Assembly: GCA_049511795.1 (NCBI GenBank)
Contig: JBEKXS010000001.1
Span: 30,001-62,000, forward strand
DNA from: Candidatus Saccharimonadota bacterium
Lineage (GTDB): Archaea > Nanobdellota > Nanobdellia > Pacearchaeales > GW2011-AR1
DNA: 32,000 nt
Reading direction: 5' to 3'
The position numbers were made by a program, and so were the translations under genes. Below are positions 1-29,743 of the stretch, piece by piece (the first letter of the stretch is position 1; every line of letters starts with the position of its first letter). The notes beneath the pieces are model-generated. The model saw only the letters and a program-made list of their open reading frames with translations. It made no database searches and was not told where the DNA came from.

Positions 1-474
1 AATTGCCCTCAGCCAAATATTGCAATACACGAGCTGCTCCATGCTCTTGGCTTCAACCATTCTGCAAATCCAAACAACGTGATGTATCCTGTAAGTTCAT
101 GCTCTCAAACAATAGGACAGGACATTCCAGACACATTAAACCAGCTTTACACATATCCTAGTCTGCCAGACCTTGCATTTGAAAATATTTCTGCTGTAAT
201 GAACGGCCCCTATCTTAATATGAACTTCACTGTAAAAAATAATGGATTAATTGATGCGCCTGCAGCAACAGTTGATGTTTATGCAGACAATAATCATGTT
301 TACAACATACAATTGAATCCCCTAAGTATAGGGGAAGGGAGACGAATCTTTGTAACTAGCGTTTTTGTTCTTCAGAAAAATGTAAATCAGTTGAAATTTG
401 TTATAAATTCGGATTTTGAAGAATTGGACAAAAGCAACAATGAAGCGACACTAAATTATAATAATAGCAATTAA
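1..474 (+). CDS. C-terminal part of a metzincin-type zinc metalloprotease with CARDB-like tail (5' end outside window)
   Basis: Frame 1 is open from nt 1 and reads ..NIAIHELLHALGFNHSANPNNVMYP. This is the HExxHxxGxxH zinc signature followed by a Met-turn-like MYP. The ORF-track start at 79 is therefore internal. The tail (NFTVKNNG..VDVY..) resembles CARDB/adhesion beta-sandwich domains. Confidence 0.7.
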   Translation, partial: NCPQPNIAIHELLHALGFNHSANPNNVMYPVSSCSQTIGQDIPDTLNQLYTYPSLPDLAFENISAVMNGPYLNMNFTVKNNGLIDAPAATVDVYADNNHVYNIQLNPLSIGEGRRIFVTSVFVLQKNVNQLKFVINSDFEELDKSNNEATLNYNNSN

Positions 475-563
475 AGGGTTTCGTCGAGTTCTAAATCATC
501 TATCTCTTCATCAAATTCTGCTTCTTCATCATCAAATTCTTCAATCTCTTCTTTTTTAGCCAT
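471..563 (-). CDS. 30-aa highly acidic micro-protein (MAKKEEIEEFDDEEAEFDEEIDDLELDETL)
   Basis: ATG at 563-561 and TAA at 473-471. A GAGG lies 8 nt upstream of the ATG and a TATA-like AAATATTTAAAAAG lies further upstream. Too short for the ORF track. Its stop overlaps the stop of the convergent protease gene. Confidence 0.35.
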   Translation of the reverse strand: MAKKEEIEEFDDEEAEFDEEIDDLELDETL

Positions 564-687
564 TTTTTCAGCCTCGTTTCCACCTCAATTTTATTGAAAT
601 CTTAAGAAGGATTTGCTTTTTAAATATTTCTATAGACGGAGATATAGGTTTTTTCCGTCGATAATTTTGGAGAAAATTTAAAAGATA

Positions 688-730
688 AGAAAAATCCCTA
701 CCCCGCATCGATTAAAAGTAATCGATTCTG
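688..730 (-). repeat. Degenerate tRNA-Tyr 3'-exon-like relic (DR3) with 8-bp hairpin
   Basis: Minus strand reads ACAGAATCGATTACTTTTAATCGATGCGGGGTAGGGATTTTTCTTA. It aligns with the tRNA-Tyr intron end, exon 2 and 3' flank (ACAGAACCCGAT..TTCGATTCTGGGTGGGGGGAATTTTTCTTA). The hairpin ATCGATTA/TAATCGAT lies at 707-726. Confidence 0.55.
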
Positions 731-755
731 TAAGAAAAAGTTGGATTCCCTAAAT

Positions 756-1445
756 TTAACTAAAATCAGAAACATCTAGCTCTTCTAATTTCTTACCTTT
801 TGATGCAGTCTGCTCTGCCTTATACTTATATTTTTCCTGTTCTTCTTGGTATATTCTTAATAAAAGAGAAGGAATTAAGTTTAGCATAGCAGGTAAAGAA
901 TCATAACGTCCTTCTTCCCTCCCATTTTTAGACATTAGAAAATCCATAAACTTTGCAGTGAATTCTTCTATAGTTCTTGCCTTTAATTTAGGAACATAAC
1001 TTTGTTTATATTTTTTCCAAGAAAGAAATTTATTAGGAAATTCATAATTCAAAAAAGATATTTCTGTTGGAGAATTTGAGTCTTTTTCAAATTTAAGTTC
1101 TATAGCATATTTTATAAAATTATCAATTCTTAAACTAAAACCTTTTTTTGATTTCTTTTTGCCAATTTCTATTCTAGCACTTTCGCCAGATAAGTCTACG
1201 GGGTAAAAGGAGTGATAATCATCTTTCAAACCTGAAATTTGGTTTCCTAATAAATAAATATTTCCTATAACTTTGGGAAGTTTTTCACGCATTAAATCCA
1301 TGTATCTGTATGATTCTTGTTCAAGATTATCTGCAACTGCTTCAGTCTCTAATTTAGTCCTTTCAACTTCGCCAATTACTCTTTCTACATTTCCTACTTC
1401 AAGAGATTGAAGTGCCTTTAGTCTTCCCTCTAAATTTTCTGTCAT
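756..1445 (-). CDS. Hypothetical protein, 229 aa, coiled-coil-like N-terminus (last gene of 4-gene operon)
   Basis: Long ORF whose start lies 3 nt after the upstream stop. No family recognised. Confidence 0.6.
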   Translation of the reverse strand: MTENLEGRLKALQSLEVGNVERVIGEVERTKLETEAVADNLEQESYRYMDLMREKLPKVIGNIYLLGNQISGLKDDYHSFYPVDLSGESARIEIGKKKSKKGFSLRIDNFIKYAIELKFEKDSNSPTEISFLNYEFPNKFLSWKKYKQSYVPKLKARTIEEFTAKFMDFLMSKNGREEGRYDSLPAMLNLIPSLLLRIYQEEQEKYKYKAEQTASKGKKLEELDVSDFS

Positions 1446-1448
1446 TTT

Positions 1449-1898
1449 TTATTGTGCCCTTCTAGGATAATCAAATGTTCCATTGCCCCTACCTTTTGCG
1501 AACATAGTTTTGTTTCCCCATACAGTATAAACAAGATCTGCTTTTCCATCTCCATCTAGATCCTTAACAGTAAAGTCTCTTATTGCTGCATCTGCGCCAC
1601 TATTATGATCTCTTAAAACTTCTTTTTTTGGTTCAAAGCTTCCATCTCCTTTATTGCAGGCAACATAAAAAACATAATCTACATGATAAGGTCTGTTATC
1701 AAGGTTAGGAAATTCAACTCCTTGTTCATGTTTTCCATTATGCCAGTTATAAAAGTTATCCATTTGTAAAGAAATTATATCTAATTTTCTATTTCCACAA
1801 ACATCAGCATAAACAGCAGGATATTCTCTTGGTTGATGACATGAAACACTAAGTGCAGACAATCCAGCTAATGCCAATGTTTTTAATGTTTTTGTCAT
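1449..1898 (-). CDS. Putative secreted lipoprotein with FG-GAP/VCBS-like repeat
   Basis: N-terminal signal with lipobox-like LSALSVSC. DLDGDGKADLV is a typical FG-GAP/VCBS calcium-binding repeat motif. Confidence 0.6.
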   Translation of the reverse strand: MTKTLKTLALAGLSALSVSCHQPREYPAVYADVCGNRKLDIISLQMDNFYNWHNGKHEQGVEFPNLDNRPYHVDYVFYVACNKGDGSFEPKKEVLRDHNSGADAAIRDFTVKDLDGDGKADLVYTVWGNKTMFAKGRGNGTFDYPRRAQ

Positions 1899-1901
1899 TT
1901 T

Positions 1902-2168
1902 TTATTGTGCGCTTCTTACTTTTGTTAGTATAGCCTTCATATCTTCTCTTTTTCCAGAACAATCAAAAGCAATATCACCTACAAAGACATCAAGTCCGGA
2001 TGAAGCAAAAAGATTAGCAATATGCTGGGCTTCGCTTGGTTGACAGTTATTTCTCCATCTATATCCCTGCATTATTTGTTCAGCATAATGTATATTTGTA
2101 GCAGTTACTAAAGTTGTATAAAAGCTTGGATTGTATTCTTCTAACCTAGCCATTTCTTCGTTTGTCAT
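1902..2168 (-). CDS. Hypothetical protein, 88 aa
   Basis: ORF tightly coupled on both sides through the 17-nt junction repeat. No family recognised. Confidence 0.5.
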   Translation of the reverse strand: MTNEEMARLEEYNPSFYTTLVTATNIHYAEQIMQGYRWRNNCQPSEAQHIANLFASSGLDVFVGDIAFDCSGKREDMKAILTKVRSAQ

Positions 2169-2171
2169 TTT

Positions 2172-2537
2172 TTATTGTGTACCTACTTCTTTTACAACCT
2201 TTTTTTCTAAACCTAAAACTTTGTATCCTACTGGAAGTTGAAATTCTCCTTTAGCTAATTCTTCTCTTGAATAATCTCCAGAACTAAAAGCATCCATTTG
2301 TTTTCCTTCTACAACTTGTTTATGTAAAATTAACTTTGGTTTAGCTCCCCTCACATATTTTATTTCAACGATATGATAAGGAACTTCAACAATTACACTT
2401 TTATCATTTCCGTATAATTGTCCAACAACTACAAGTCTATCTACTGGTGAAAAGAATCCTGTTTCAGGGACAAACCTGATTTCACGAACTAAATATCTTT
2501 CTTCCCATTTCTTTGATACACGAGATGATAATTCCAT
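2172..2537 (-). CDS. Hypothetical protein, 121 aa (starts MEL; motif EVPYHIVEI)
   Basis: A TATA 8-mer TTTATAAA at 2559-2566 lies exactly 21 nt upstream of the ATG. First gene of the 4-gene operon. Confidence 0.55.
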   Translation of the reverse strand: MELSSRVSKKWEERYLVREIRFVPETGFFSPVDRLVVVGQLYGNDKSVIVEVPYHIVEIKYVRGAKPKLILHKQVVEGKQMDAFSSGDYSREELAKGEFQLPVGYKVLGLEKKVVKEVGTQ

Positions 2538-2592
2538 ATTTTTCCAACAAATTCCATATTTATAAATATTGTGATATTGCTGTCACTTCATA

Positions 2593-2640
2593 ATTAAGAA
2601 AATATCCCCCCACCCAGTTTTACCAAAATGGATTCTTTAG
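2593..2640 (-). repeat. Degenerate tRNA-Tyr 3'-exon-like relic (DR2)
   Basis: Segment 2593-2617 (attaagaaaatatccccccacccag) matches 4189-4213 at 23/25. That region covers the last 13 nt of tRNA-Tyr plus 12 nt of 3' flank. Upstream, AAAGAATCCAT resembles the intron end and exon-2 start ACAGAACCCGAT. Confidence 0.65.
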
Positions 2641-2676
2641 GAATTAATAGAGTCCTAAGAGAGTTAAAGAGAAAAC

Positions 2677-2931
2677 TTATTTATAATTTAGCTCATCAAA
2701 TAAGCTACTAGATTTATAACTATATTTATTATCTAAATCGTCATATTTGTTATCTTGATAAAAATACTGTTTTTTTATAATGCTTTCTAAGTCTATTTTT
2801 CTATTCTTTTTTCCTTCACGTAGATAATCTGGAAAGTAATCTATCCTGTTTTCTATTTCTTCTCTGATTCTTCTAGGCCCAACTGAAAAAACACCGCCCT
2901 GCCTTAATAAACTAAAAACCCCTTGTAGCAT
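2677..2931 (-). CDS. Hypothetical protein, 84 aa
   Basis: ORF downstream of the kinase-like gene. The ATG at 2931 is preferred over the TTG at 2937 in the ORF track. A hairpin (TTAGGA/TCCTAA) follows the stop. Confidence 0.4.
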   Translation of the reverse strand: MLQGVFSLLRQGGVFSVGPRRIREEIENRIDYFPDYLREGKKNRKIDLESIIKKQYFYQDNKYDDLDNKYSYKSSSLFDELNYK

Positions 2932-2952
2932 TCCCAAATCAACTTCATTACT

Positions 2953-4128
2953 TTAATTTCTATTACTTGACTCATAACCAGTATTAAAACCATCTATAAA
3001 TCTTTTTCTTGTTTCCTGAACCATTATATGTTCTCTACCCAAAAATGGTTTGCCTTGAATTTGTCTTGGACTAATTGGTCCATGTAAAGCGCTTTCTAAT
3101 ATATTCCTTCTCTCTCTTTCTTGTAAATCTCTTATTTCTGACCTTGAGTAATCTCTTGTATCACAAGAAGCATCAAAATCTACTAAACCGACTTTAACTT
3201 TATCAGAACCATTGTATAAAACAATGTTTCCTATATGTGCATTTGTCTGCTCAAAATTAGAACTCCAAGTCTGAACATTTCTGTCCATTAATCTTTTTAG
3301 TCTTCCTACAACAAAACCAATATCATAATAAAATTTACCCAAAGTTTTGATATATTCTTCTCCTTGTTTTGTAAATTCTCCTATTTCAATTGCACTGTTT
3401 CCTTTACCATCTCTGGTTTTTCTTCCCATGTAAAATTTATGTGTCGCTAATCCATCTAAAATTATCATTAATTCATCTAACCTTGTATCACCCTTTATTT
3501 CTGTTATTGTTGCAGTTGGTCTGACATTTCTTACTAAAACTGGATATTTCCAAAATCCTCTAACAGACATAGCTGGTTCAATCCCAACACTTTGGAGGAC
3601 TTGATTAAATTTGTTTGACATTAATTTTTCAAATTGTGCACTAAATCCTTCTTGCCCACCAACAATTCTAAAATGCCCATCACCCATATCTTGTGCAACA
3701 GGATTTTCTGGATCTACAGAAACTCCTTTAAGTTTATACCATTTTTTAGTTTCTGGATCTTGAACTAAAGCAGAGCGATAACCACTCCACAGACCAGGGA
3801 AAAAACGAGGGGTATATGTATTCATTCCTGGAAATTGAGATACCATTCTTACAATACTGTCTAATTTTTGTTTTATCTCTTTTTGCGGTTTGCTTACCCC
3901 CTGGTATTCTACCTCTTGACCGCCAGATTTAAAATGCTCTTCAATTTCTTTAAAATCTGATTCATCTACAATTAACAAATCATCATTTGGATTTCTTCCA
4001 TTCAAATTTTCAACTTGTCCTTGAGGAACAACCCTAGGAGTTCTTAAAAATTTAGGCAAATCATCTCCTATAACTTTTCCATCTGTTGTTGAAAGAGTAT
4101 TTGGATCTCTTTTAACTAATAATTCCAT
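2953..4128 (-). CDS. Atypical kinase-like protein (APH/choline-kinase-like phosphotransferase fold)
   Basis: TNAHIGNIVL..VGLVDFDAS resembles the catalytic-loop (HGDLHPGN-like) and DFD/DFG metal-binding motifs of the protein-kinase-like superfamily. KWYKLKG may carry the ATP-binding lysine. The TATA 8-mer at 4150-4157 lies 21 nt upstream of the ATG. Confidence 0.55.
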   Translation of the reverse strand: MELLVKRDPNTLSTTDGKVIGDDLPKFLRTPRVVPQGQVENLNGRNPNDDLLIVDESDFKEIEEHFKSGGQEVEYQGVSKPQKEIKQKLDSIVRMVSQFPGMNTYTPRFFPGLWSGYRSALVQDPETKKWYKLKGVSVDPENPVAQDMGDGHFRIVGGQEGFSAQFEKLMSNKFNQVLQSVGIEPAMSVRGFWKYPVLVRNVRPTATITEIKGDTRLDELMIILDGLATHKFYMGRKTRDGKGNSAIEIGEFTKQGEEYIKTLGKFYYDIGFVVGRLKRLMDRNVQTWSSNFEQTNAHIGNIVLYNGSDKVKVGLVDFDASCDTRDYSRSEIRDLQERERRNILESALHGPISPRQIQGKPFLGREHIMVQETRKRFIDGFNTGYESSNRN

Positions 4129-4200
4129 TATTTTTCAGAATAAAGATTATTTATAAACTTTATGGCATTGTAATTACTTTACAGTTACATTAAGAAAAAT

Positions 4201-4351
4201 TCCCCCCACCCAGAATCGAACTGGGGATCTATCGGGTTCTGTTTTGAATCTGAACCATTTCGGCTTTTGGGGTTTCATAGTCTTCCGTATGGAATCTCCA
4301 CCTTAGACATAATCTACAGCCGATCGCTCTAAACCACTGAGCTATGGGGGG
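4201..4351 (-). tRNA. tRNA-Tyr(GUA) with a 77-nt intron at the canonical 37/38 position; no encoded CCA
   Basis: Acceptor CCCCCCA/TGGGGGG with C1:G72 (archaeal Tyr identity pair) and A73. D arm GCTC/GAGC, anticodon stem ATCGG/CCGAT, loop CTGTAG(C), T arm CCCAG-TTCGATT-CTGGG. Exon 1 is 4314-4351, the intron about 4237-4313, exon 2 4201-4236. Confidence 0.85.
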
Positions 4352-4391
4352 CTGAAATTTGTAAACCACTTAGCTTTTTATTTCTTTCTTA

Positions 4392-4436
4392 GATTAAAAA
4401 ATCTTCCACGCCGAAACCGTATTAAAAGTAATACAG
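4392..4436 (-). repeat. tRNA 3'-exon-like relic (X) with 8-bp hairpin abutting the stop codon
   Basis: Minus strand reads CTGTATTACTTTTAATACGGTTTCGGCGTGGAAGATTTTTT. It shares a 12-nt core ATTACTTTTAAT and the block CGG.GT.G..GATTTTT with DR3. The hairpin is at 4417-4436. Confidence 0.5.
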
Positions 4437-4736
4437 TTAAGAGGAATTTGGTTTAATGATTGTGGAAATTTCTTGTAATCTATTTAACAAAGTGATATGA
4501 GAACAATTAAAGACTGTTCCATTTGGATTTGATATTCTGTCTCTCAATTCACTATCAATAGCTTTACCTGTTTTAGATTCCTTTAAGAATATCAGAGCCA
4601 AGCAATCATAATATGTTGAATTGCTTCCCTCCGGTTGGAATTGTGCTATAACATCTGTCCTTTTGTTTCCTGTCAGGTGTTTAAAATTTTGATAAAAAAG
4701 GCATGTTGAATGATGTGGACAGTATTGTGCTGACAT
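4437..4736 (-). CDS. Hypothetical Cys/His-containing protein, 99 aa (MSAQYCPHHSTC..)
   Basis: The ATG at 4736 lies exactly 21 nt downstream of the TTTTAAA box. The ORF-track GTG start at 4781 would lie inside the promoter motif. Confidence 0.5.
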   Translation of the reverse strand: MSAQYCPHHSTCLFYQNFKHLTGNKRTDVIAQFQPEGSNSTYYDCLALIFLKESKTGKAIDSELRDRISNPNGTVFNCSHITLLNRLQEISTIIKPNSS

Positions 4737-4757
4737 TAAAATATCATAAATTAGAAG

Positions 4758-4778
4758 TTTAAAAGAATTATTGTGATT
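4758..4778 (-). promoter_or_regulatory. Conserved promoter module copy A (AATCACAATAATTCTTTTAAA)
   Basis: BRE/TATA-like. The TTTTAAA box lies 21 nt upstream of the ATG at 4736. Near-identical copies occur at 5184-5204, 5509-5529 and 15744-15760. Confidence 0.5.
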
Positions 4779-4814
4779 CACAGTGGGACATGGCGTTTAA
4801 CTCTGAGCTATTGG
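4777..4814 (-). pseudogene. tRNA 5'-exon-like relic A
   Basis: CCAATAGCTCAGAGTTAAACGCCATGTCCCACTGTGAA is 32/42 identical to relic C over 4773-4814. It shares ATAGCTCAG with tRNA-Tyr. The D-stem complement is absent, so it is not a functional tRNA. Confidence 0.5.
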
Positions 4815-4829
4815 AAAAAAAGATGAAAA

Positions 4830-5162
4830 CTACCAGAAATTAATAGTACCTTTAACCCCACCACTTACCAATTTTGATTCTAAACTCTTTTTATCTTTTT
4901 TATCTGTTACTGGATTTACAATAGAAAACATGCGATTAACTTGCCTCACAAGATATCCTGGAACAATTACATAATTTACTAATCTTATACCTCTAGTTTC
5001 ATGTACTTGAACAACTAAAACTTCTTTGCCTTTATATTTAACAGGAATTTCTATAAAATCTCTTGTTACATGAACATTACCAAGATCAACTATTTGACCT
5101 TCAACCCTTCCTGTAACATTTTCTTCTTCTTCAGTATGGTATCTATGAAAATATTTTTTCAT
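4830..5162 (-). CDS. Hypothetical protein, 110 aa
   Basis: ORF with promoter module copy B 21 nt upstream of the ATG. No family recognised. Confidence 0.5.
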   Translation of the reverse strand: MKKYFHRYHTEEEENVTGRVEGQIVDLGNVHVTRDFIEIPVKYKGKEVLVVQVHETRGIRLVNYVIVPGYLVRQVNRMFSIVNPVTDKKDKKSLESKLVSGGVKGTINFW

Positions 5163-5183
5163 TTTCTTATTTAACTTTATTCC

Positions 5184-5204
5184 TTTAAAAGAATTATTGT
5201 GATT
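5184..5204 (-). promoter_or_regulatory. Conserved promoter module copy B
   Basis: AATCACAATAATTCTTTTAAA overlaps the last codons and stop (..SQ*) of the upstream gene. The spacer from 5163 to 5183 is 21 nt to the ATG at 5162. Confidence 0.5.
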
Positions 5205-5487
5205 CTTGATAAACCTCAGAATTAGCCCTTTTTATTGCATTCCTTATATCAGAAAATGTTGCTTTTCTATCCATCAAATGAGAATAAGGACCATTCAATG
5301 GAAAACCTAACCTTTTTCGGGGATTCAACCAGTGAATGAAATCTCCATCAATTACAAGAGTAAGGTCTCTGTTATCTGCTAATCTTAGATCTTTGACAAT
5401 ATATACATCTCCATCATTAGAGATGAAGGCTCTGTTTAATGCTCTTCCTTTTAGCAGGTAATCTTTTAGATTTTCTAATTTCTCCAT
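5194..5487 (-). CDS. Hypothetical protein, 97 aa
   Basis: ORF with promoter module copy C 21 nt upstream of the ATG at 5487. Confidence 0.5.
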   Translation of the reverse strand: MEKLENLKDYLLKGRALNRAFISNDGDVYIVKDLRLADNRDLTLVIDGDFIHWLNPRKRLGFPLNGPYSHLMDRKATFSDIRNAIKRANSEVYQESQ

Positions 5488-5508
5488 AAAATATGGATTT
5501 TCTCATAG

Positions 5509-5529
5509 TTTTTAAGAATTATTGTGATT
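5509..5529 (-). promoter_or_regulatory. Conserved promoter module copy C (AATCACAATAATTCTTAAAAA)
   Basis: It follows relic C directly. The spacer from 5488 to 5508 is 21 nt to the ATG. Confidence 0.5.
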
Positions 5530-5569
5530 TAAAGTGGGATAGTGCCTATGACACTGAGCTATGGGGGAC
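5529..5569 (-). pseudogene. tRNA-Tyr 5'-exon-like relic C
   Basis: GTCCCCCATAGCTCAGTGTCATAGGCACTATCCCACTTTAA contains a 16-nt exact match (CCCCCATAGCTCAGTG) to the 5' end of tRNA-Tyr. Similarity stops at the anticodon-loop/intron position. The D stem is not complementary. Confidence 0.55.
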
Positions 5570-5617
5570 AATTAAAAAAGAATAATTTGATTTTTAAGGT
5601 TTGTTATAGAAGAAGTT

Positions 5618-6991
5618 TTAATCTTCACTCATTGCTCTTTGCTCGGAAACGAAGAAAGCCTTGTTTGATTCTATTTCGTGTATGTTTCCTTCCCTGTCAA
5701 ATACTGCTGTTGCTGTTGGCAATTCAAACCTACCGACAACACCAACCTTTGAGTAAATTATGTATGAAAATATTCTGACTTCTCCAGGATTCATTGCGTC
5801 AATATTCCATTCTATTCTTCTGTTTCTTTCATCAACTCTTGTTGGAGCATCCCCACCAAATCTCTCATGAAGCTTTACCATCATAGGAAGTTGGTCAACA
5901 ATGTTTACTCTTTCAACATGATTTCTTGCTTGTGCAGATATTGAAACCCTGAGTGCAAATTCCCCGCCCTTTGCCCTCACGAATGAAACTCTTTTCCTAA
6001 GCACCAAGCTTGTTCCTGTGTATTTTCTCACAAGGAAGACAACCAATACAACAAGCAATACAAGTATGAATGGGAAAAGCCAGTTTGTCTTTACAGTTAT
6101 TTCAAAAGTTTCTCCAGGATTTATGTTCTTTGTCCACGTGTAGTAAACAACAAGACCTTCTCTCTGAACGATGTCTGGAGTTGGAGTAAAGCTTGTAAAT
6201 AATCTTGAGATAATATTTTTCTGTATTACTGTCTCAGAGCTTACAACAGTGTTTCCCTGGTTCTGCTTATCAATAACTTCTGTGTTTATCAGGATTCCAT
6301 AATCCTGCTTTGTTGTTGTAAGAATGTCTTTCTCTCCATATTTTATTACTCCTTCAACATCTGCAGTTTTTCCTATTGCATTTACTTGCGCATTCAATGT
6401 GTAAAATCCAGCCATTAAGCTCCTGAAATCAGCCTGATTCAACTGAACAGTGAATGTCTGCTTTTCATAAGGACTTAAAGCAACTGTTTTATCTAGATTA
6501 AAGAATGGAGATGAGAAATTAACATCCGCATTTCCAAAATCAAAATTTACAAGATTCTGTATGTATATATCAATAGACTGCGATTGTGGATCAACATTTC
6601 CTGAACCGATTTGGAAAGCGTCTTTCATGTCTATTATCTTGAATGTCGCGCTTTCATTGTCTATTGACCTGTCGCTTGCCTGTATGAAATAAGGAACAGT
6701 GTAATATCCTCTTTGGGAAATACTACCTATTGGAGTAAGTTGTAAAGTAATTTCTTTTGTCTGCCCATTTTGGATAGTTACATTATTTGGGTTCATGCTG
6801 AAGCCTGCAAGATTGTAAATCTGAAAATTATCAGAAAGCCCTAGGTTTGTTATATTCAAATCAAAAGTTACAGGCTGTCCTGAATCGGCAATAAGAACTT
6901 CATTCTGGCTGTTTTTTGCAACCTGGATGTTTATTGCGAGTATGTTTGGAAGAATAAAAATCAATGCTATCAAAAAAAACCACTTTTTCAT
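5618..6991 (-). CDS. Surface/membrane protein with beta-sandwich (CARDB/NEW3/DUF11-like) domains and one C-proximal TM helix
   Basis: Signal peptide MKKWFFLIALIFILPNILA, repeated beta-rich domains and the TM segment WLFPFILVLLVVLVVFLV. Confidence 0.6.
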   Translation of the reverse strand: MKKWFFLIALIFILPNILAINIQVAKNSQNEVLIADSGQPVTFDLNITNLGLSDNFQIYNLAGFSMNPNNVTIQNGQTKEITLQLTPIGSISQRGYYTVPYFIQASDRSIDNESATFKIIDMKDAFQIGSGNVDPQSQSIDIYIQNLVNFDFGNADVNFSSPFFNLDKTVALSPYEKQTFTVQLNQADFRSLMAGFYTLNAQVNAIGKTADVEGVIKYGEKDILTTTKQDYGILINTEVIDKQNQGNTVVSSETVIQKNIISRLFTSFTPTPDIVQREGLVVYYTWTKNINPGETFEITVKTNWLFPFILVLLVVLVVFLVRKYTGTSLVLRKRVSFVRAKGGEFALRVSISAQARNHVERVNIVDQLPMMVKLHERFGGDAPTRVDERNRRIEWNIDAMNPGEVRIFSYIIYSKVGVVGRFELPTATAVFDREGNIHEIESNKAFFVSEQRAMSED

Positions 6992-8855: not shown

Positions 8856-8984
8856 ATTTTTTTTAGGTTGCTTTTCCTTATAAAGTTTGTGGGTTTTTAT
8901 TGTGCTTTTCCTTTTGTTTTGTCGTGATTTTTTTATTACAACAATATTTAAATAACTCGCCTGAGAGTAGGATTAAGAATAAAA

Positions 8985-10619: not shown

Positions 10620-12218
10620 TTAGAAAAAAATAAGCAATATTAAAAGCGCAATTACTAATATTCCAATAATTATCCAGAAAAGATTCATACCCCATCCAAG
10701 CCACCTAATTAATAGGAATATTAAAAGTGCTATTAAAATAATTCCTAAAATTATAACAATTATCCAGAAAAGACTTATTCCTGTGCTTTGTGCTGCAGGA
10801 CTTTCTTCTGCAACAGCTGTTTTAGGAGCAAACTGATTTAGATATTGCTGATTCTCGAATGACAAATCTGGTGCAGCTACTGTTCCTGTTCTTGTGCCAG
10901 CTCCGCCTGCAGTGCCAGAGTTGCCATTTGGAGGTGTAATAATTGTTGTATTTACTGTGAAATTTATTACATTGCTTACTCCTGTATTTCCATTTGTATC
11001 AGTTGCGTAAAAAATAATGTTGTGATTCCCATCTGATAATGAAACACTTCCTGTGAAGTTTGTTGCTGAATTTTGCACAAGCTGTATTGATGTTGAATTG
11101 TTTCCATCAAGGACAAACCATGCTGTGCTTACATTCTCGTTTGTTGTTATGCTTAACAATACATTTGAACTATTGTATGTCTGTCCGTTTACAGGTGAAA
11201 TAACTGTTATTACAGGAGCTGTGTTATTTCCATGTGGAATTATAACAGGAACATTAGAAACTGTCAAAACATAACTTTGTGTAACAGGTGCATTGACACT
11301 ATCTGAAACACTTAATCCAACAGCATAATTTGTGTCCTGAGTTACATTTGGTGCTGTTCCTGAAATCAAGCCTGTTGATGGATTGATTGAAAGCCATGTT
11401 GGGTTTGCTGTAAGAGCATATGTTAAACTATCTCCATCTGGGTCAACTGCAATAACCTGATAATTGTACAATGTTGATTCATTAACTTGTGTAACAGGTG
11501 TTGATGTTATTGTTGGAGGTGAATTTACAGGATTGCTTGTATTTGCGTATCTTACAATCAATGGGAAAGTTTGGGTTACAAAGGATTTTCCATCTGAAAC
11601 CTGGACAGTAATCAAAAATTGGTAGTCTGTTGTAACATTTGGGGCAACACCGCTGACAAATCCTGCTGGATTCATTGAAAGCCATGTTGGTGCTTGTGTA
11701 AGCGAATATGCCAAAGCATCCCCGTCTGCATCTGTTGCAGTAACTTGGTAGGAATACAACTGGCTTGAATTAACACTTGTTTGGGGTGTTGATGTTATTA
11801 CAGGAATCTGGTTTGGGGGAATTACAGAAATTACCTGAAGATATAATCTTGCAGTAGCTGTCTGCCCGCTTGCTCCTGTAACTGTTGATTGAATAATATA
11901 ATTTCCAGGATTAAGATATGTTCCCTGGCCGAAGAAAAAATGATTTGAATAAGAACTGTCAGTTGTATAAACCTCAAGAAGATTGCTCAATCTATTTCCT
12001 GCAGAATCAAGCAAATCAACTTTTAAATATATATTATTTTCCAAAATAGAATTAGCATCAATTGTAATTCCAACATTTTGCCCGTTCATGATTTGAAGAG
12101 TGTTTGAAGTAGTTGATTCATAAAATAAAGCTGTCTGAACGCTGCTTGCGCTTACAAGCACTGCTAAGAAAACAAACATTGCTGGAATCAAAAGTAATTT
12201 TTTGTTAAGTGTGTTCAT
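10620..12218 (-). CDS. Secreted adhesin-like protein with two cadherin-like/He_PIG Ig domains and a duplicated C-terminal TM anchor
   Basis: Signal peptide. Repeated YxYQVxAxDxDGDxLxYxL..PxWLSxNP..G.xSGxAPNVT. C-terminus LFWIIVIILGIILIALLIFLLI then LFWIIIGILVIALLILLIFF. Confidence 0.65.
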   Translation of the reverse strand: MNTLNKKLLLIPAMFVFLAVLVSASSVQTALFYESTTSNTLQIMNGQNVGITIDANSILENNIYLKVDLLDSAGNRLSNLLEVYTTDSSYSNHFFFGQGTYLNPGNYIIQSTVTGASGQTATARLYLQVISVIPPNQIPVITSTPQTSVNSSQLYSYQVTATDADGDALAYSLTQAPTWLSMNPAGFVSGVAPNVTTDYQFLITVQVSDGKSFVTQTFPLIVRYANTSNPVNSPPTITSTPVTQVNESTLYNYQVIAVDPDGDSLTYALTANPTWLSINPSTGLISGTAPNVTQDTNYAVGLSVSDSVNAPVTQSYVLTVSNVPVIIPHGNNTAPVITVISPVNGQTYNSSNVLLSITTNENVSTAWFVLDGNNSTSIQLVQNSATNFTGSVSLSDGNHNIIFYATDTNGNTGVSNVINFTVNTTIITPPNGNSGTAGGAGTRTGTVAAPDLSFENQQYLNQFAPKTAVAEESPAAQSTGISLFWIIVIILGIILIALLIFLLIRWLGWGMNLFWIIIGILVIALLILLIFF

Positions 12219-15614: not shown

Positions 15615-15743
15615 TATATTATAGCACAATTATTCCCCCTTAATTATAATTTATACTTTTTGTTAAACACTTATCATATATAAAGGTAGTCTTTAACCTA
15701 CTCTGTTAACTTAAAGGTTGGTTTTAGATATAATCTACAAATA

Positions 15744-15760
15744 ACAATAATTCTTTTAAA
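15744..15760 (+). promoter_or_regulatory. Conserved promoter module copy D (ACAATAATTCTTTTAAA)
   Basis: Same 17-mer as copies A and B. TTTTAAA lies 21 nt upstream of the second ATG (15782). Confidence 0.5.
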
Positions 15761-15781
15761 TGAAGAAATGAGATTAATATG

Positions 15782-18882: not shown

Positions 18883-19611
18883 TTATTTTTTCAGCCATTC
18901 ATAGCCTTTTTCTTCCAAATGGTCGACAAGTTTCCCAGCACCTTCTTTGACAATTTTTCCATTAAGCATTATTGAAACTTTGTCTGGTTTTACATATTCA
19001 AGAATTCTTTTGTAATGAGTTATTATCAAAACTGTTTTATCTTTTGACATGAACTTGTTTATTCCGTTAGCAATTATTCTTAGGGAATCTATATCCAAGC
19101 CAGAATCTGTTTCATCAAGGATTGCAACCTGTGGATTCAGGACAAGAAGTTGAAGTATTTCTGATTTTTTCTTTTCTCCACCGGAAAATCCCTTGTTTAG
19201 ATAGCGAGACAGGAATTCTCGCGGGATTTTCAGTTCGTCTGCTGTTTTCTCCAGCAATTCCTGAAATTCCATTAAAGAAAGCTTTTTTTCATGGACAGAA
19301 TTGTAGGCTTGCCTCAAAAAGCTTGAAAGCTTTACACCTTCAATTTCAATAGGATTCTGGAATGAGAGAAACAAACCTAATTTTGCCCTTTCGCTGACGC
19401 TTAATTTCAAAATATCCTGATCATTGAATAAAATTTGCCCTTCATTAACATTATATCTTGGATCACCTGCAATTATATTTGCTAAAGTTGATTTTCCGCT
19501 TCCATTTGGACCCATCAAAGCATTAACTTTTCCTTGCTCAAGATTTAAGTTAAGTCCTTTCAGGATTTCTTTTCCTTTGAAAGCAACATGGAGATTTTTT
19601 ATTTCAAACAT
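18883..19611 (-). CDS. sufC: Fe-S cluster assembly ATPase SufC
   Basis: Walker A GPNGSGKST, ABC signature FSGGEKKK, Walker B ILDETDSGLD. Confidence 0.9.
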   Translation of the reverse strand: MFEIKNLHVAFKGKEILKGLNLNLEQGKVNALMGPNGSGKSTLANIIAGDPRYNVNEGQILFNDQDILKLSVSERAKLGLFLSFQNPIEIEGVKLSSFLRQAYNSVHEKKLSLMEFQELLEKTADELKIPREFLSRYLNKGFSGGEKKKSEILQLLVLNPQVAILDETDSGLDIDSLRIIANGINKFMSKDKTVLIITHYKRILEYVKPDKVSIMLNGKIVKEGAGKLVDHLEEKGYEWLKK

Positions 19612-29671: not shown

Positions 29672-29700
29672 CTTATTATTAACTATGTAGTAGTTACATC

Positions 29701-29718
29701 CACAATATTTATAAATAT
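29701..29718 (+). promoter_or_regulatory. Promoter 18-mer CACAATATTTATAAATAT (identical copy on minus strand at 2556-2573)
   Basis: An exact 18-nt repeat upstream of two unrelated genes. The TATA 8-mer lies 28 nt upstream of the 29744 ATG. Confidence 0.45.
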
Positions 29719-29743
29719 CAAAATCATGAAAAAATATAATAAA

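Follow-up and report, generated by a model that had tools for sequence, protein, structure and literature searches.

Partial tRNA gene copies bounding gene blocks at a Pacearchaeota tRNA-Tyr locus are probable scars of repeated insertion at both ends of the gene

After integration targeted to a tRNA gene, a complete tRNA copy is present together with a partial one (PMC9897764). The att sites of archaeal elements prefer the 3' end of the gene, 'with various 5' limits', and may reach outside it; pTN3-like integrases (Thermococcales) target the 5' half, and the rebuilt tRNA is then expressed from a promoter of the element (PMC8371274). Tandem integration and loss of the integrase after integration have been documented for archaeal elements in the same review, in which the terms DPANN and Nanoarchaeota have 0 occurrences (PMC8371274). 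At the tRNA-Thr(GGU) locus of Caldiarchaeum subterraneum, a 5' tRNA fragment lies 1.8 kb upstream of the intact intron-bearing tRNA, and the inserted DNA, which codes for a recombinase and has further copies in the genome, has been linked to intron gain (Sugahara et al. 2012, PMC3293823).

In this study, an array of gene blocks around a tRNA-Tyr gene was analysed in a 32,000-nucleotide stretch of DNA (the window) from a Pacearchaeota (DPANN) genome. Its features, in descending order of position, are as follows.

5618-6991, minus strand: upstream anchor, a conserved 457-aa core gene (1536 homologues; syntenic in L011-L014, L031 and L032)
5590-5604, minus strand: ancestral promoter of tRNA-Tyr, ACAAACCTTAAAAAT, which today precedes relic C
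5552-5567, minus strand: core of relic C, an attL-type scar, exact 16-nt copy of the tRNA-Tyr 5' end
5508-5551, minus strand: putative arm of inserted DNA with promoter module ATCACAATAATTCTTAAAAA, homologous to the arm of relic A
5194-5487, minus strand: cargo gene ORF97
4830-5162, minus strand: cargo gene ORF110
4757-4818, minus strand: relic A, a degenerate paralogue of C (core-like CCAATAGCTCAG, arm and promoter module)
4437-4736, minus strand: ORF99, encoding a small Cys-rich protein
4392-4434, minus strand: X, terminator-like (hairpin GTATTA-CTTT-TAATAC and T-run), not demonstrably tRNA-derived
4373-4384, minus strand: TATA-like presumed replacement promoter of the intact tRNA, from sequence inspection
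4201-4351, minus strand: intact tRNA-Tyr(GTA) gene (exons 4313-4351 and 4201-4236; intron 4237-4312, with a conserved core at 4264-4306)
4189-4213, minus strand: DR1, tRNA 3' end and flank, repeat partner of DR2
2677-4128, minus strand: one gene with a protein-kinase-like fold (391-aa and 84-aa ORFs, in-frame TAA at 2953-2955)
2593-2617, minus strand: DR2, an attR-type scar copying the tRNA 3' end and flank, with a hairpin (2614-2631) in front
756-2537, minus strand: four genes of the same orientation, encoding 121, 88, 149 and 229 aa, with three copies of RCACAATAAAAAATGACA joining them
686-731, minus strand: DR3, a degenerate tRNA 3' half (last 6 intron nucleotides to 3' flank) with an X-type hairpin, at the synteny breakpoint
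471-563, minus strand: downstream anchor, a gene for a conserved 30-aa acidic protein, beyond which lies a peptidase M10 gene

The intron-containing tRNA-Tyr gene proposed in the initial annotation is real: it matches Rfam RF00005 (52.8 bits, E 8.6e-9), its intron (~76-80 nt) is in the canonical position and covarying stems are present in a seven-species tRNA-Tyr alignment. ARAGORN did not detect the gene at 4201-4351. The locus layout is 100% identical across contigs from five samples, which excludes an assembly artefact. In composition the array is atypical and foreign (GC 0.319 versus 0.354; dinucleotide distance 145, against a maximum of 60 in background windows of the same size).

The syntenic locus was compared, as had been suggested, in seven related genomes (L011-L014 and L031-L033, L033 being a 3-kb contig). 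The tRNA-Tyr gene lies between the same core genes in six of them (the L033 contig shows none), and the genes adjoining it on both sides differ in every relative. An ancestral downstream neighbour of ~200 aa is present in L012, L013 and L014 and absent from the window and L011. The latter genome carries a DR3-type 3' relic of its own at the breakpoint that DR3 marks in the window, and keeps an intact tRNA on the ancestral promoter. In L013 the conserved promoter is followed by a 15-nt candidate 5' relic, 46 nt and the intact tRNA. Significant relics are those of the window and L011, to which L013 may add a short footprint.

On the 5' side, relic C matches tRNA positions 2-17 exactly (16/16; 0/500 shuffles as good), and past position 17 the identity drops abruptly to 6/22 (P=3e-6). 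It stands directly after the conserved 457-aa gene, the place of the intact tRNA in L012, and the 15-mer ACAAACCTTAAAAAT, with the same 22-nt spacer, precedes the intact tRNA-Tyr in L011 and L031 (z=8.3). Relic C is thus confirmed as a copy of the tRNA-Tyr 5' end, but the tRNA likeness that the initial annotation had extended to the anticodon loop amounts, beyond position 17, to a faint residual similarity of C and A to the rest of the 5' exon (p=0.035 and 0.016), ending at that loop. Relic A, reported as another 5' copy, is clearly C-like (80% identity over 59 nt, z=12.7) but not significantly tRNA-like on its own (102/1000 shuffles). The last 4 codons of ORF97 and the downstream promoter correspond to the A module, with identity over 22 nt.

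Both outer 3' relics withstood comparison with shuffled controls, as did C: DR2 matches 4189-4213, 3' flank included, at 23/25 positions (z=7.2, 0/1000 shuffles), and DR3 matches the tRNA 3' end and flank with z=4.2 (0/1000). The claim that terminal intron nucleotides open the 3' relics is borne out for DR3, whose upstream part (ACAGAA-TCGAT...TCGAT) matches the intron end and 3' exon (6/2000), but not for DR2, whose upstream part gives no significant match (855/2000). Synteny with the sister genome L011 restarts at window position 698, inside DR3, which abuts the ancestral downstream flank. The identification of X as a further 3'-exon relic could not be upheld, since it is not significantly tRNA-like (63/1000 shuffles) and its counterpart in the sister genome, a hairpin with a T-run at L011:19289-19332 (z=11.4), has no tRNA adjacent; X also resembles the hairpin part of DR3 (z=6.5).

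At least four of the 10 ORFs, all initially regarded as orphans, are not: the 391-aa and 84-aa ORFs form the single kinase-like gene, and ORF229 and ORF99 belong to cellular DPANN families. The kinase-like gene is accessory, as its best non-self homologue is only 51% identical even with the L011 genome present in the protein database (P0102). ORF149 contains FG-GAP repeats. Homologues of ORF99 in the relatives form an operon with the thermosome gene (32-44% identity to the genes upstream of it by tblastn, in L011 with two copies, L013, L014 and L032; the L031 copy in this slot was found by sequence inspection), and in the window the thermosome slot, only 4 kb away, is empty of this family.

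The description of the array as integrase-less is correct for the window, in which no scanned ORF matched a recombinase in Pfam, PHROG or NCBIfam. No integrase or mobile-element gene was found in the window or among the precomputed Pfam matches of the island genes of L012-L014, L031 and L032, the genomes covered by this profile comparison, and neither a free copy of the att arms nor an alternative one turned up in viral and metagenome collections. Integrase loss and tandem integration being already documented, the lack of an integrase is not enough to define a new 'platform'.

The partial tRNA copies that bound the blocks most likely record repeated DNA insertion at the two ends of the tRNA-Tyr gene. 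This agrees with one of two readings offered initially, serial gene capture at a tRNA attachment site, which is supported by the promoter of C, the flank at DR3, the variable neighbours and the composition. We infer that insertions have recurred in this Pacearchaeota lineage at the tRNA-Tyr gene, which lies between the 457-aa gene and the small acidic-protein gene, and that circular DNAs with a short tRNA-like attachment sequence would have recombined site-specifically with the chromosomal gene. At least two insertions would have occurred at the 3' end, with a shared block running from the T-stem or 3' half to ~12 nt beyond the gene, and at least one, probably two, at the 5' end, with a shared block of 16 nt (CCCCCATAGCTCAGTG). 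Every event would rebuild an intact tRNA, with a partial copy remaining beyond the insert, and 3' events would push older scars outwards, the well-preserved DR2 being presumably young and the degenerate DR3, still joined to the ancestral flank, old. In the 5' event the gene would have become detached from its ancestral promoter and from its original first 16 nt, which remain as relic C, and it is now presumably transcribed from an insert-supplied promoter; the TATA-like sequence at 4373-4384 is not homologous to the conserved tRNA-Tyr promoter. Relic A may be the equivalent junction of a related neighbouring insert, and X may be the hairpin that terminates the ORF99 block. The recombinase may have been lost or may act in trans (encoded elsewhere), and the remnant would be a decaying, compositionally foreign 4.9-kb island. 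Points against serial insertion are the absence of integrase and mobile-element genes and of further att-arm copies in the searches above, the small size of the inserts (0.4-1.9 kb), the stronger degeneration of A than of C, the variable content without significant relics in L012, L014, L031 and L032, and the three cargo genes from cellular DPANN families, which have housekeeping contexts elsewhere and are not of virus or plasmid families.

Like archaeal tRNA-targeted elements (tyrosine-recombinase att scars, 'gene capture in archaeal chromosomes', PYG1-type islands), the locus pairs a complete tRNA with a partial copy at the opposite end and has an identity block reaching the 3' end and beyond (PMC9897764, PMC8371274), tandem or serial occupancy of one tRNA, apparent integrase loss and variable presence among relatives. 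Unlike them, it retains no integrase or backbone genes, its 0.4-1.9-kb blocks carry cellular DPANN cargo and its host belongs to the Pacearchaeota. With pTN3-like integration it shares an insert upstream of a rebuilt tRNA, the old promoter and 5' fragment left behind and, as far as the presumed promoter goes, tRNA expression from an element-brought promoter (PMC8371274); here, however, identity covers a core of just 16 nt, the tRNA adjoins no integrase gene of the pTN3 type and a short non-coding spacer follows a terminator-like hairpin upstream. The Caldiarchaeum locus likewise has a 5' fragment with native upstream sequence ~1-2 kb before an intact intron-containing copy and an insert between them, whereas the present one shows no recombinase, no intron change and extra 3' scars. 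Split or permuted tRNA genes (Nanoarchaeum equitans and others) also provide tRNA half-like pieces lying apart in a DPANN genome, but here an intact tRNA-Tyr is present and the pieces are without a foldable D-arm, anticodon arm, T-arm or complementary leaders. Integron cassette arrays are similar in having co-oriented small cassettes between hairpin-containing imperfect repeats, with the youngest scar closest to the insertion point; the likeness is limited to layout, as there is no intI-like gene or attI here and the repeats come from a tRNA gene. To our knowledge, nothing comparable to such arrays is known in archaea.

Local rearrangement without site specificity, in a fragile and recombination-prone intergenic zone around tRNA-Tyr where segmental duplication or illegitimate or homologous recombination with the DNA of relatives produced the relics without any att/integrase system, is an unlikely explanation. 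The missing integrase, the several relatives with variable content and no relics, the 46-nt footprint in L013, the repeated promoter modules (which could mediate unequal crossing-over) and the absence of an ORF99-family gene from its usual slot nearby are compatible with it, but the exact or near-exact cores have abrupt boundaries precisely at the two tRNA ends, the tRNA stays intact through every event and the array is foreign in composition. Moreover, with only 32-42% identity between ORF99 and the two L011 copies, a simple local relocation does not account for this gene. The cellular cargo also fits functional gene capture rather than decayed mobile elements, in which a recombinase encoded elsewhere would capture single cellular genes at both tRNA-Tyr ends, each cassette with a portable CACAATAA-type promoter module, a hairpin and a tRNA-like core. 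Blocks do consist of one to four genes with a promoter module and terminal hairpin each, six of the seven CACAATAA matches in the window lie at block or gene junctions within the array, arms of neighbouring blocks are related (A to C and X to DR3, as above; for the left ends of the two 3' blocks the score is 26, where shuffles reached at most 23) and the scar nearest the tRNA is the best preserved. Such an integron-like platform is nevertheless quite improbable: no recombinase was seen, promoter modules are not limited to the array, being present at ordinary genes elsewhere in the window (15743-15762 and ~29675-29740) and in L011 at a distance from any tRNA, significant relics are confined to the window and L011, with a short candidate footprint in L013, a second array is not known, and the premature stop in the kinase-like gene suggests decay instead of a maintained system.

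The other reading of the initial annotation, in which successive tRNA copies took nested insertions at their intron, would make C/DR2 and A/X halves of disrupted tRNA genes. It draws on the acceptor complementarity of A and X (7/7 including one G.U; p ~0.014, a chance of ~1.4%), the faint likeness of C and A to the 5' exon up to the anticodon loop and the six terminal intron nucleotides opening DR3. Yet identity stops in the D-loop in C and begins at the T-stem in DR2, neither at the intron, and no relic holds intron-proximal sequence of the 5' side. The complementarity of C and DR2 is trivial because both derive from the same tRNA, X lacks a demonstrable tRNA origin, with an L011 homologue far from any tRNA, and L011 carries a DR3-type relic beside an intact tRNA on the ancestral promoter, all of which makes nesting very improbable. 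That the relics reflect chance similarity or some generic AT-rich repeat of intergenic DNA is scarcely credible; X and A alone do not beat shuffles against the tRNA, but for C, DR2 and DR3, which beat every shuffle, this is refuted, C having an orthologous promoter and DR3 lying at the synteny breakpoint. With repeated insertion at both ends of the tRNA-Tyr gene as the most likely origin of the array, the locus would be an instance of a process already known from archaea, here with no recombinase gene present.

The stretch comes from an archaeon with a low GC content (~34–35%) and encodes a thermosome, diphthamide synthase, SufB/SufS and superoxide dismutase. Its first 7.1 kb are 100% identical in contigs from five independent samples, among which no population variant of the layout was seen over that distance, and the layout of the array described here is therefore not an assembly artefact. 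The array comprises ~4.9 kb of minus-strand gene blocks around an intact tRNA-Tyr gene, between a gene for a 457-aa protein and a gene for an acidic protein. It most likely consists of tRNA integration scars around a decaying island, which is a known kind of structure and a fresh example of it in Pacearchaeota. Unusual here are the scars on both sides of one tRNA gene, the very small blocks, the cellular-type cargo and the lack of a recombinase. The features concerned are:

5552–5567, minus: relic C, on the 5' side of the tRNA; 16/16 exact match (0/500 shuffles)
4757–4818, minus: relic A, on the 5' side of the tRNA; not significant alone (102/1000 shuffles)
4392–4434, minus: X, proposed as a 3'-type relic; not significant (63/1000 shuffles)
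4373–4384, minus: TATA-like sequence ahead of the intact tRNA-Tyr, differing from the ancestral promoter
4201–4351, minus: intact tRNA-Tyr(GTA), with a long insertion in the anticodon loop (Rfam, 52.8 bits)
4313–4351 and 4201–4236, minus: the two tRNA-Tyr exons
2593–2617, minus: DR2, 3'-type relic; 23/25 identical, including 12 nt of 3' flank (z=7.2)
686–731, minus: DR3, 3'-type relic (z=4.2)

The relics were compared with the tRNA and its flanks, with dinucleotide-shuffled sequences as controls. Five tRNA-half relics had been proposed in the initial annotation; C, DR2 and DR3 score better than the shuffles, whereas A and X do not reach significance on their own. All of them are intergenic, and a permissive Rfam scan (E<=10) scored none of them as a tRNA. 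Identity of C to the tRNA drops directly past the core (the tRNA-matching part), from 16/16 to 6/22 (P=3e-6), and the rest of the 5' exon has left a faint residual likeness in C (p=0.035) and A (p=0.016). A and C share 80% identity over 59 nt (z=12.7), and at the sequence level A is clearly a paralogue of C. DR2 is not tRNA-like in its upstream part (855/2000). The upstream part of DR3 (ACAGAA-TCGAT...TCGAT) matches the last six intron nucleotides and the 3' exon (6/2000), and DR3 therefore has the look of a copy of the entire 3' gene half, now decayed. X is similar to the hairpin of DR3 (z=6.5) and closer still to a hairpin with a T-run at 19289–19332 of the sister-genome locus L011 (z=11.4), where neither ARAGORN nor Rfam found a tRNA (both also missed the tRNA-Tyr of L011 itself); the analysis took X for a putative terminator-like module and discarded it as a tRNA relic. 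The two 3' blocks are alike at their left ends, which was at first read as a longer DR2 repeat; a promoter of this type also stands ahead of an unrelated gene at 29726, and only ~20–25 nt of DR2 are therefore tRNA-specific.

The 457-aa gene, which lies upstream of the array, belongs to the Pacearchaeota core and has 1536 homologues. Seven related loci were retrieved, whose proteins are 88% (L011), 73% (L033), 69% (L012), 68% (L031), 66% (L032), 65% (L013) and 62% (L014) identical to that of the window. In all but the short L033 contig the gene order is kept (thermosome, CBS, 167-aa gene, 457-aa gene, variable region, peptidase M10), with the tiny acidic-protein gene, where called, just before peptidase M10. 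An intron-bearing tRNA-Tyr lies within the variable region of L011–L014, L031 and L032. Relatives carry empty or differently filled tRNA-Tyr sites: in L012, the simplest layout, the tRNA starts 36 nt past the 457-aa gene, so that its 5' side is empty, and content differs among L011, L013, L014, L031 and L032 on one or both sides of the tRNA. The tRNA of L012 is followed by a gene for a ~200-aa membrane protein, also present in L013 and L014 (36–45% identity) and absent from the window and L011. In L033 an opposite-strand PaREP1-like gene (2385–2849) directly follows the 457-aa gene, and no tRNA-Tyr is seen in the 760 nt that remain of that short contig, which would be a further variant of the locus.

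Homology between the window and L011 extends through the 457-aa gene, is found again at the tRNA, and resumes from window position 698, inside DR3; DR3 is thus joined to the original downstream flank, and L011 carries a degenerate 3' relic of its own (CCAGATTCTAGATGGGGATTTTTC) at the same breakpoint. In L011 and L031 the promoter ATAACAAACCTTAAAAAT and a 22-nt spacer stand ahead of the intact tRNA-Tyr. In the window this promoter stands, equally spaced, ahead of relic C instead of the intact gene (z=8.3), which makes C the 5' end of the original tRNA gene, left in place. L013 (~11650–11750) has a similar arrangement on a small scale: after the conserved tRNA-Tyr promoter come a 15-nt 5' relic (CCCCTCTAACTCGG), 46 nt and the intact tRNA, which may be what remained when an earlier 5' insertion was deleted again. 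The array also differs in composition, with a GC content of 0.319 vs 0.354 and a dinucleotide distance of 145 from the rest of the window (maximum of 60 for same-size background windows).

The ten ORFs of the array had been described as orphans; this does not hold for the kinase-like pair, ORF229 and ORF99, which have relatives in DPANN archaea, and at least three cargo genes come from cellular DPANN families, not from virus or plasmid families. The 391-aa ORF has ~100 homologues across DPANN archaea, in varied housekeeping contexts (adjoining GlmS, class-I aminoacyl-tRNA synthetase and aRF1 genes), and is shorter than these by 60–90 residues. The 84-aa ORF aligns to the missing C-terminus (E=2e-10) and lies in the same frame, separated by one TAA; therefore the two ORFs constitute one gene with a premature or read-through stop. 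This TAA (2953–2955, within the kinase-like gene at 2677–4128, minus) is present in the contigs of all five samples and is either a fixed nonsense mutation or programmed read-through. The predicted structure (pLDDT 84.9) has weak matches to the protein-kinase-like folds WaaP, Bud32 and maltokinase (E~4e-4), and the label "kinase-like" is acceptable at the level of the modelled fold. For this gene PHROGs gave one weak, unannotated match (E 0.003), and the viral contigs contained no relative.

ORF229 has 38 representative relatives, and one homologue (48% identical) stands alone between rpS3Ae and YbjQ/GINS/SRP54 genes; the predicted structure of ORF229 (pLDDT 90) matches nothing significantly in the PDB and is not folded like a recombinase. 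ORF99 is 32–44% identical to a ~100-aa Cys-rich gene located directly upstream of the thermosome gene, and co-oriented with it, in L011, L013, L014 and L032; an equivalent occupies this slot in L031 (judged by sequence inspection), and the slot is empty in the window and L012. The regions concerned are window 8856–8984, L011 7283–7834, L013 8406–8708, L014 8426–8731, L031 87–392 and L032 5151–5477. In the relatives the gene for the Cys-rich protein (MxxYCPHxxxCPFY...) leads an operon of two genes, the second being the thermosome gene, and L011 has two tandem copies of it; ORF99, in the tRNA array, is a divergent copy of this family, the usual slot of the window being without the gene. ORF149 contains FG-GAP repeats, the other small ORFs (97, 110, 121 and 88 aa) have no matches in the profile libraries scanned, and PADLOC gave no credible defence-system match.

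The earlier observation that no integrase is present was borne out: none of the window ORFs scanned matched a recombinase in Pfam, PHROGs or NCBIfam, nor a Cas1 or transposase, and the window has no element backbone genes (replication, capsid, conjugation). Among the Pfam hits precomputed for island genes in L012–L014, L031 and L032 there are likewise no recombinase or backbone genes. Searches of viral contigs with the kinase-like family, the 5' core, the arm (the insert-side sequence adjoining a core) and the operon junction returned only unrelated tRNAs or single chance matches. In metagenome contigs the 36-nt 3' exon had 0 matches, in a collection that is incomplete (a same-strain JGI contig contains the exon), and the C/A arm had one chance match, inside an unrelated coding region.

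Site-specific recombination of a circular DNA with a tRNA gene classically restores the gene and leaves a partial copy of it at the far end of the insert (PMC9897764). We infer that recombination of this kind produced the array. At the 3' end, serial events would have pushed older scars outward: DR2, the nearest and best-preserved scar, would bound the kinase-like gene, and DR3, older and degenerate, would bound the four-gene block and abut the ancestral flank. An insert with a 16-nt core would have entered at the 5' end, between the gene on one side and its old promoter and first 16 nt (C) on the other, and A would be the corresponding junction of a related, adjacent insert; homologous A and C arms are what tandem integration of related elements would be expected to give. 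Excision would be predicted to yield the attP junctions ...CAAATTTCAG-CCCCCATAGCTCAGTG-TCATAGGCAC... and ...TTGGTAAAA-CTGGGTGGGGGGA(WW)TTTTCTTAAT-GTAACTGT..., and the integrase would since have been lost. Serial capture at a tRNA attachment site, one of the two readings initially offered, is thus supported by the relics, the ancestral promoter and flank, the variable content and the composition.

Each of these steps has archaeal precedents. Tyrosine recombinases of archaea prefer the tRNA 3' end "with various 5' limits", and att can reach outside the gene; pTN3-like integrases target the 5' half, and a promoter of the element then drives expression of the rebuilt tRNA; also documented are tandem integration at a single locus and integrated elements that have lost their integrase (PMC8371274). 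In Caldiarchaeum a 5' tRNA fragment lies 1.8 kb upstream of an intact intron-bearing tRNA (PMC3293823). The array shares with tRNA-targeted islands the complete tRNA with partial copies at the opposite boundaries, the differently filled site in relatives and the atypical composition, but contains neither an integrase gene nor backbone genes, its cargo having homologues in cellular contexts. The 5' relic keeps the ancestral promoter and a different promoter-like sequence precedes the intact tRNA, which may fit pTN3-like integration; a pTN3-type integrase is absent. Partition of an SSV-type "suicidal" integrase, with att within its ORF, into int(N) and int(C) does not apply, as the relics all lie between genes and the flanking ORFs have no similarity to integrases. 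Split tRNA genes (complementary leaders, no intact gene) were rejected, since tRNA-Tyr is intact and the relics are not scored as tRNA, and so was a casposon or transposon with target-site duplication, for want of terminal inverted repeats, Cas1 or transposase; the 5' insert ends show only a 6-nt subterminal inverted match (by inspection).

The other initial reading, nested insertion at the intron of successive tRNA copies, is disfavoured. The borders of similarity lie in the D-loop and T-stem rather than at the intron, a tRNA origin of X could not be demonstrated, and L011 has a DR3-type relic together with an intact tRNA on its own promoter. Of the acceptor complementarities cited for nesting, that of C and DR2 is trivial, and that of A and X (7/7 with one G.U) has a chance probability of ~1.4% over plausible registers. 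Rearrangement that was not site-specific is an unlikely source of the array, accounting more poorly than recombination at the tRNA for exact cores at precise tRNA ends and for the foreign composition.

More improbable still would be a working, integron-analogous capture platform, in which a recombinase encoded elsewhere inserts and shuffles single cellular genes at both tRNA-Tyr ends, each with a portable promoter module, a hairpin and a tRNA-like recombination site, the long intron confining usable att to the two exon ends. Promoter modules and hairpins are indeed common to neighbouring blocks, and six of the seven window matches of CACAATAA are in the array, concentrated at block junctions. 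However, promoters of these types also stand ahead of ordinary genes at 15779 and 29726 and, in L011, at places away from any tRNA, the kinase-like gene is interrupted, and several relatives combine variable content with no detectable relics. Nor does the array resemble an integron (intI, attI, attC hairpins): there is no integrase, and the hairpins preceding DR2, DR3 and X form no single conserved attC-like family.

Some further details of these modules were recorded. The array-type promoters elsewhere in the window (15743–15762 and ~29675–29740, plus) are of the types AACAATAATTCTTTTAAA and TTAACTATGTAGT..CACAATATTTATAAATAT..GAAAAAATA, and CACAAT directly upstream of the TATA box is BRE-like in look. 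Three consecutive gene junctions (1440–1456, 1893–1909 and 2163–2179, minus) have RCACAATAAAAAATGACA in common, the upstream proteins ending in ..(T/A)Q* and the downstream ones beginning with MT; the four genes so joined have no other relation to each other, and the last one has a homologue that is solitary elsewhere. In L011 (19289–19690, minus) ~340 nt separate the promoter module ATCACAATAATTCTTAAAAA from an X-type hairpin, with only short broken ORFs between them, which looks like a decayed cassette of the array type away from any tRNA; 19250–19720 of L011 has no protein similarity to any window cargo.

The exons of tRNA-Tyr are identical in the window and L011, and the L011 intron is ~50 nt longer, with an extra insert of ~48 nt. 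A ~43-nt intron core, CTAAGGTGGAGATTCC-loop-GGAAnACTATGAAACCCCAAAAG (window 4264–4306, minus; L011 12656–12700; equivalents in L012–L014, L031 and L032), is (nearly) invariant across seven species whose acceptor stems differ. Its loop helix covaries (TTCC/GGAA vs TCCG/CGGA), it contains a K-turn-like GA/GA internal loop, and it matched no Rfam family, the permissive scan included. Such conservation may point to a functional intron-embedded RNA or an L7Ae-binding site. ARAGORN in bacterial mode missed the intron-bearing tRNA-Tyr in the window, L011–L014, L031 and L032, and Rfam at its gathering threshold missed the 202-nt L011 gene with its longer intron. At loci like these annotation will often say that tRNA-Tyr is lacking, and the array is a useful case for annotators, with att-type tRNA fragments as markers of island edges.

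The array is a probable case of insertion aimed at a tRNA gene from both sides, 5' and 3', in Pacearchaeota, DPANN archaea whose integrated elements and recombinases have so far been poorly described. If a recombinase acting in trans were found, the array could be regarded as a candidate for an archaeal cassette system. It represents a route of accessory-gene gain and loss at a fixed hot spot in small genomes, some of the genes gained being replacement copies of cellular genes that are otherwise conserved.
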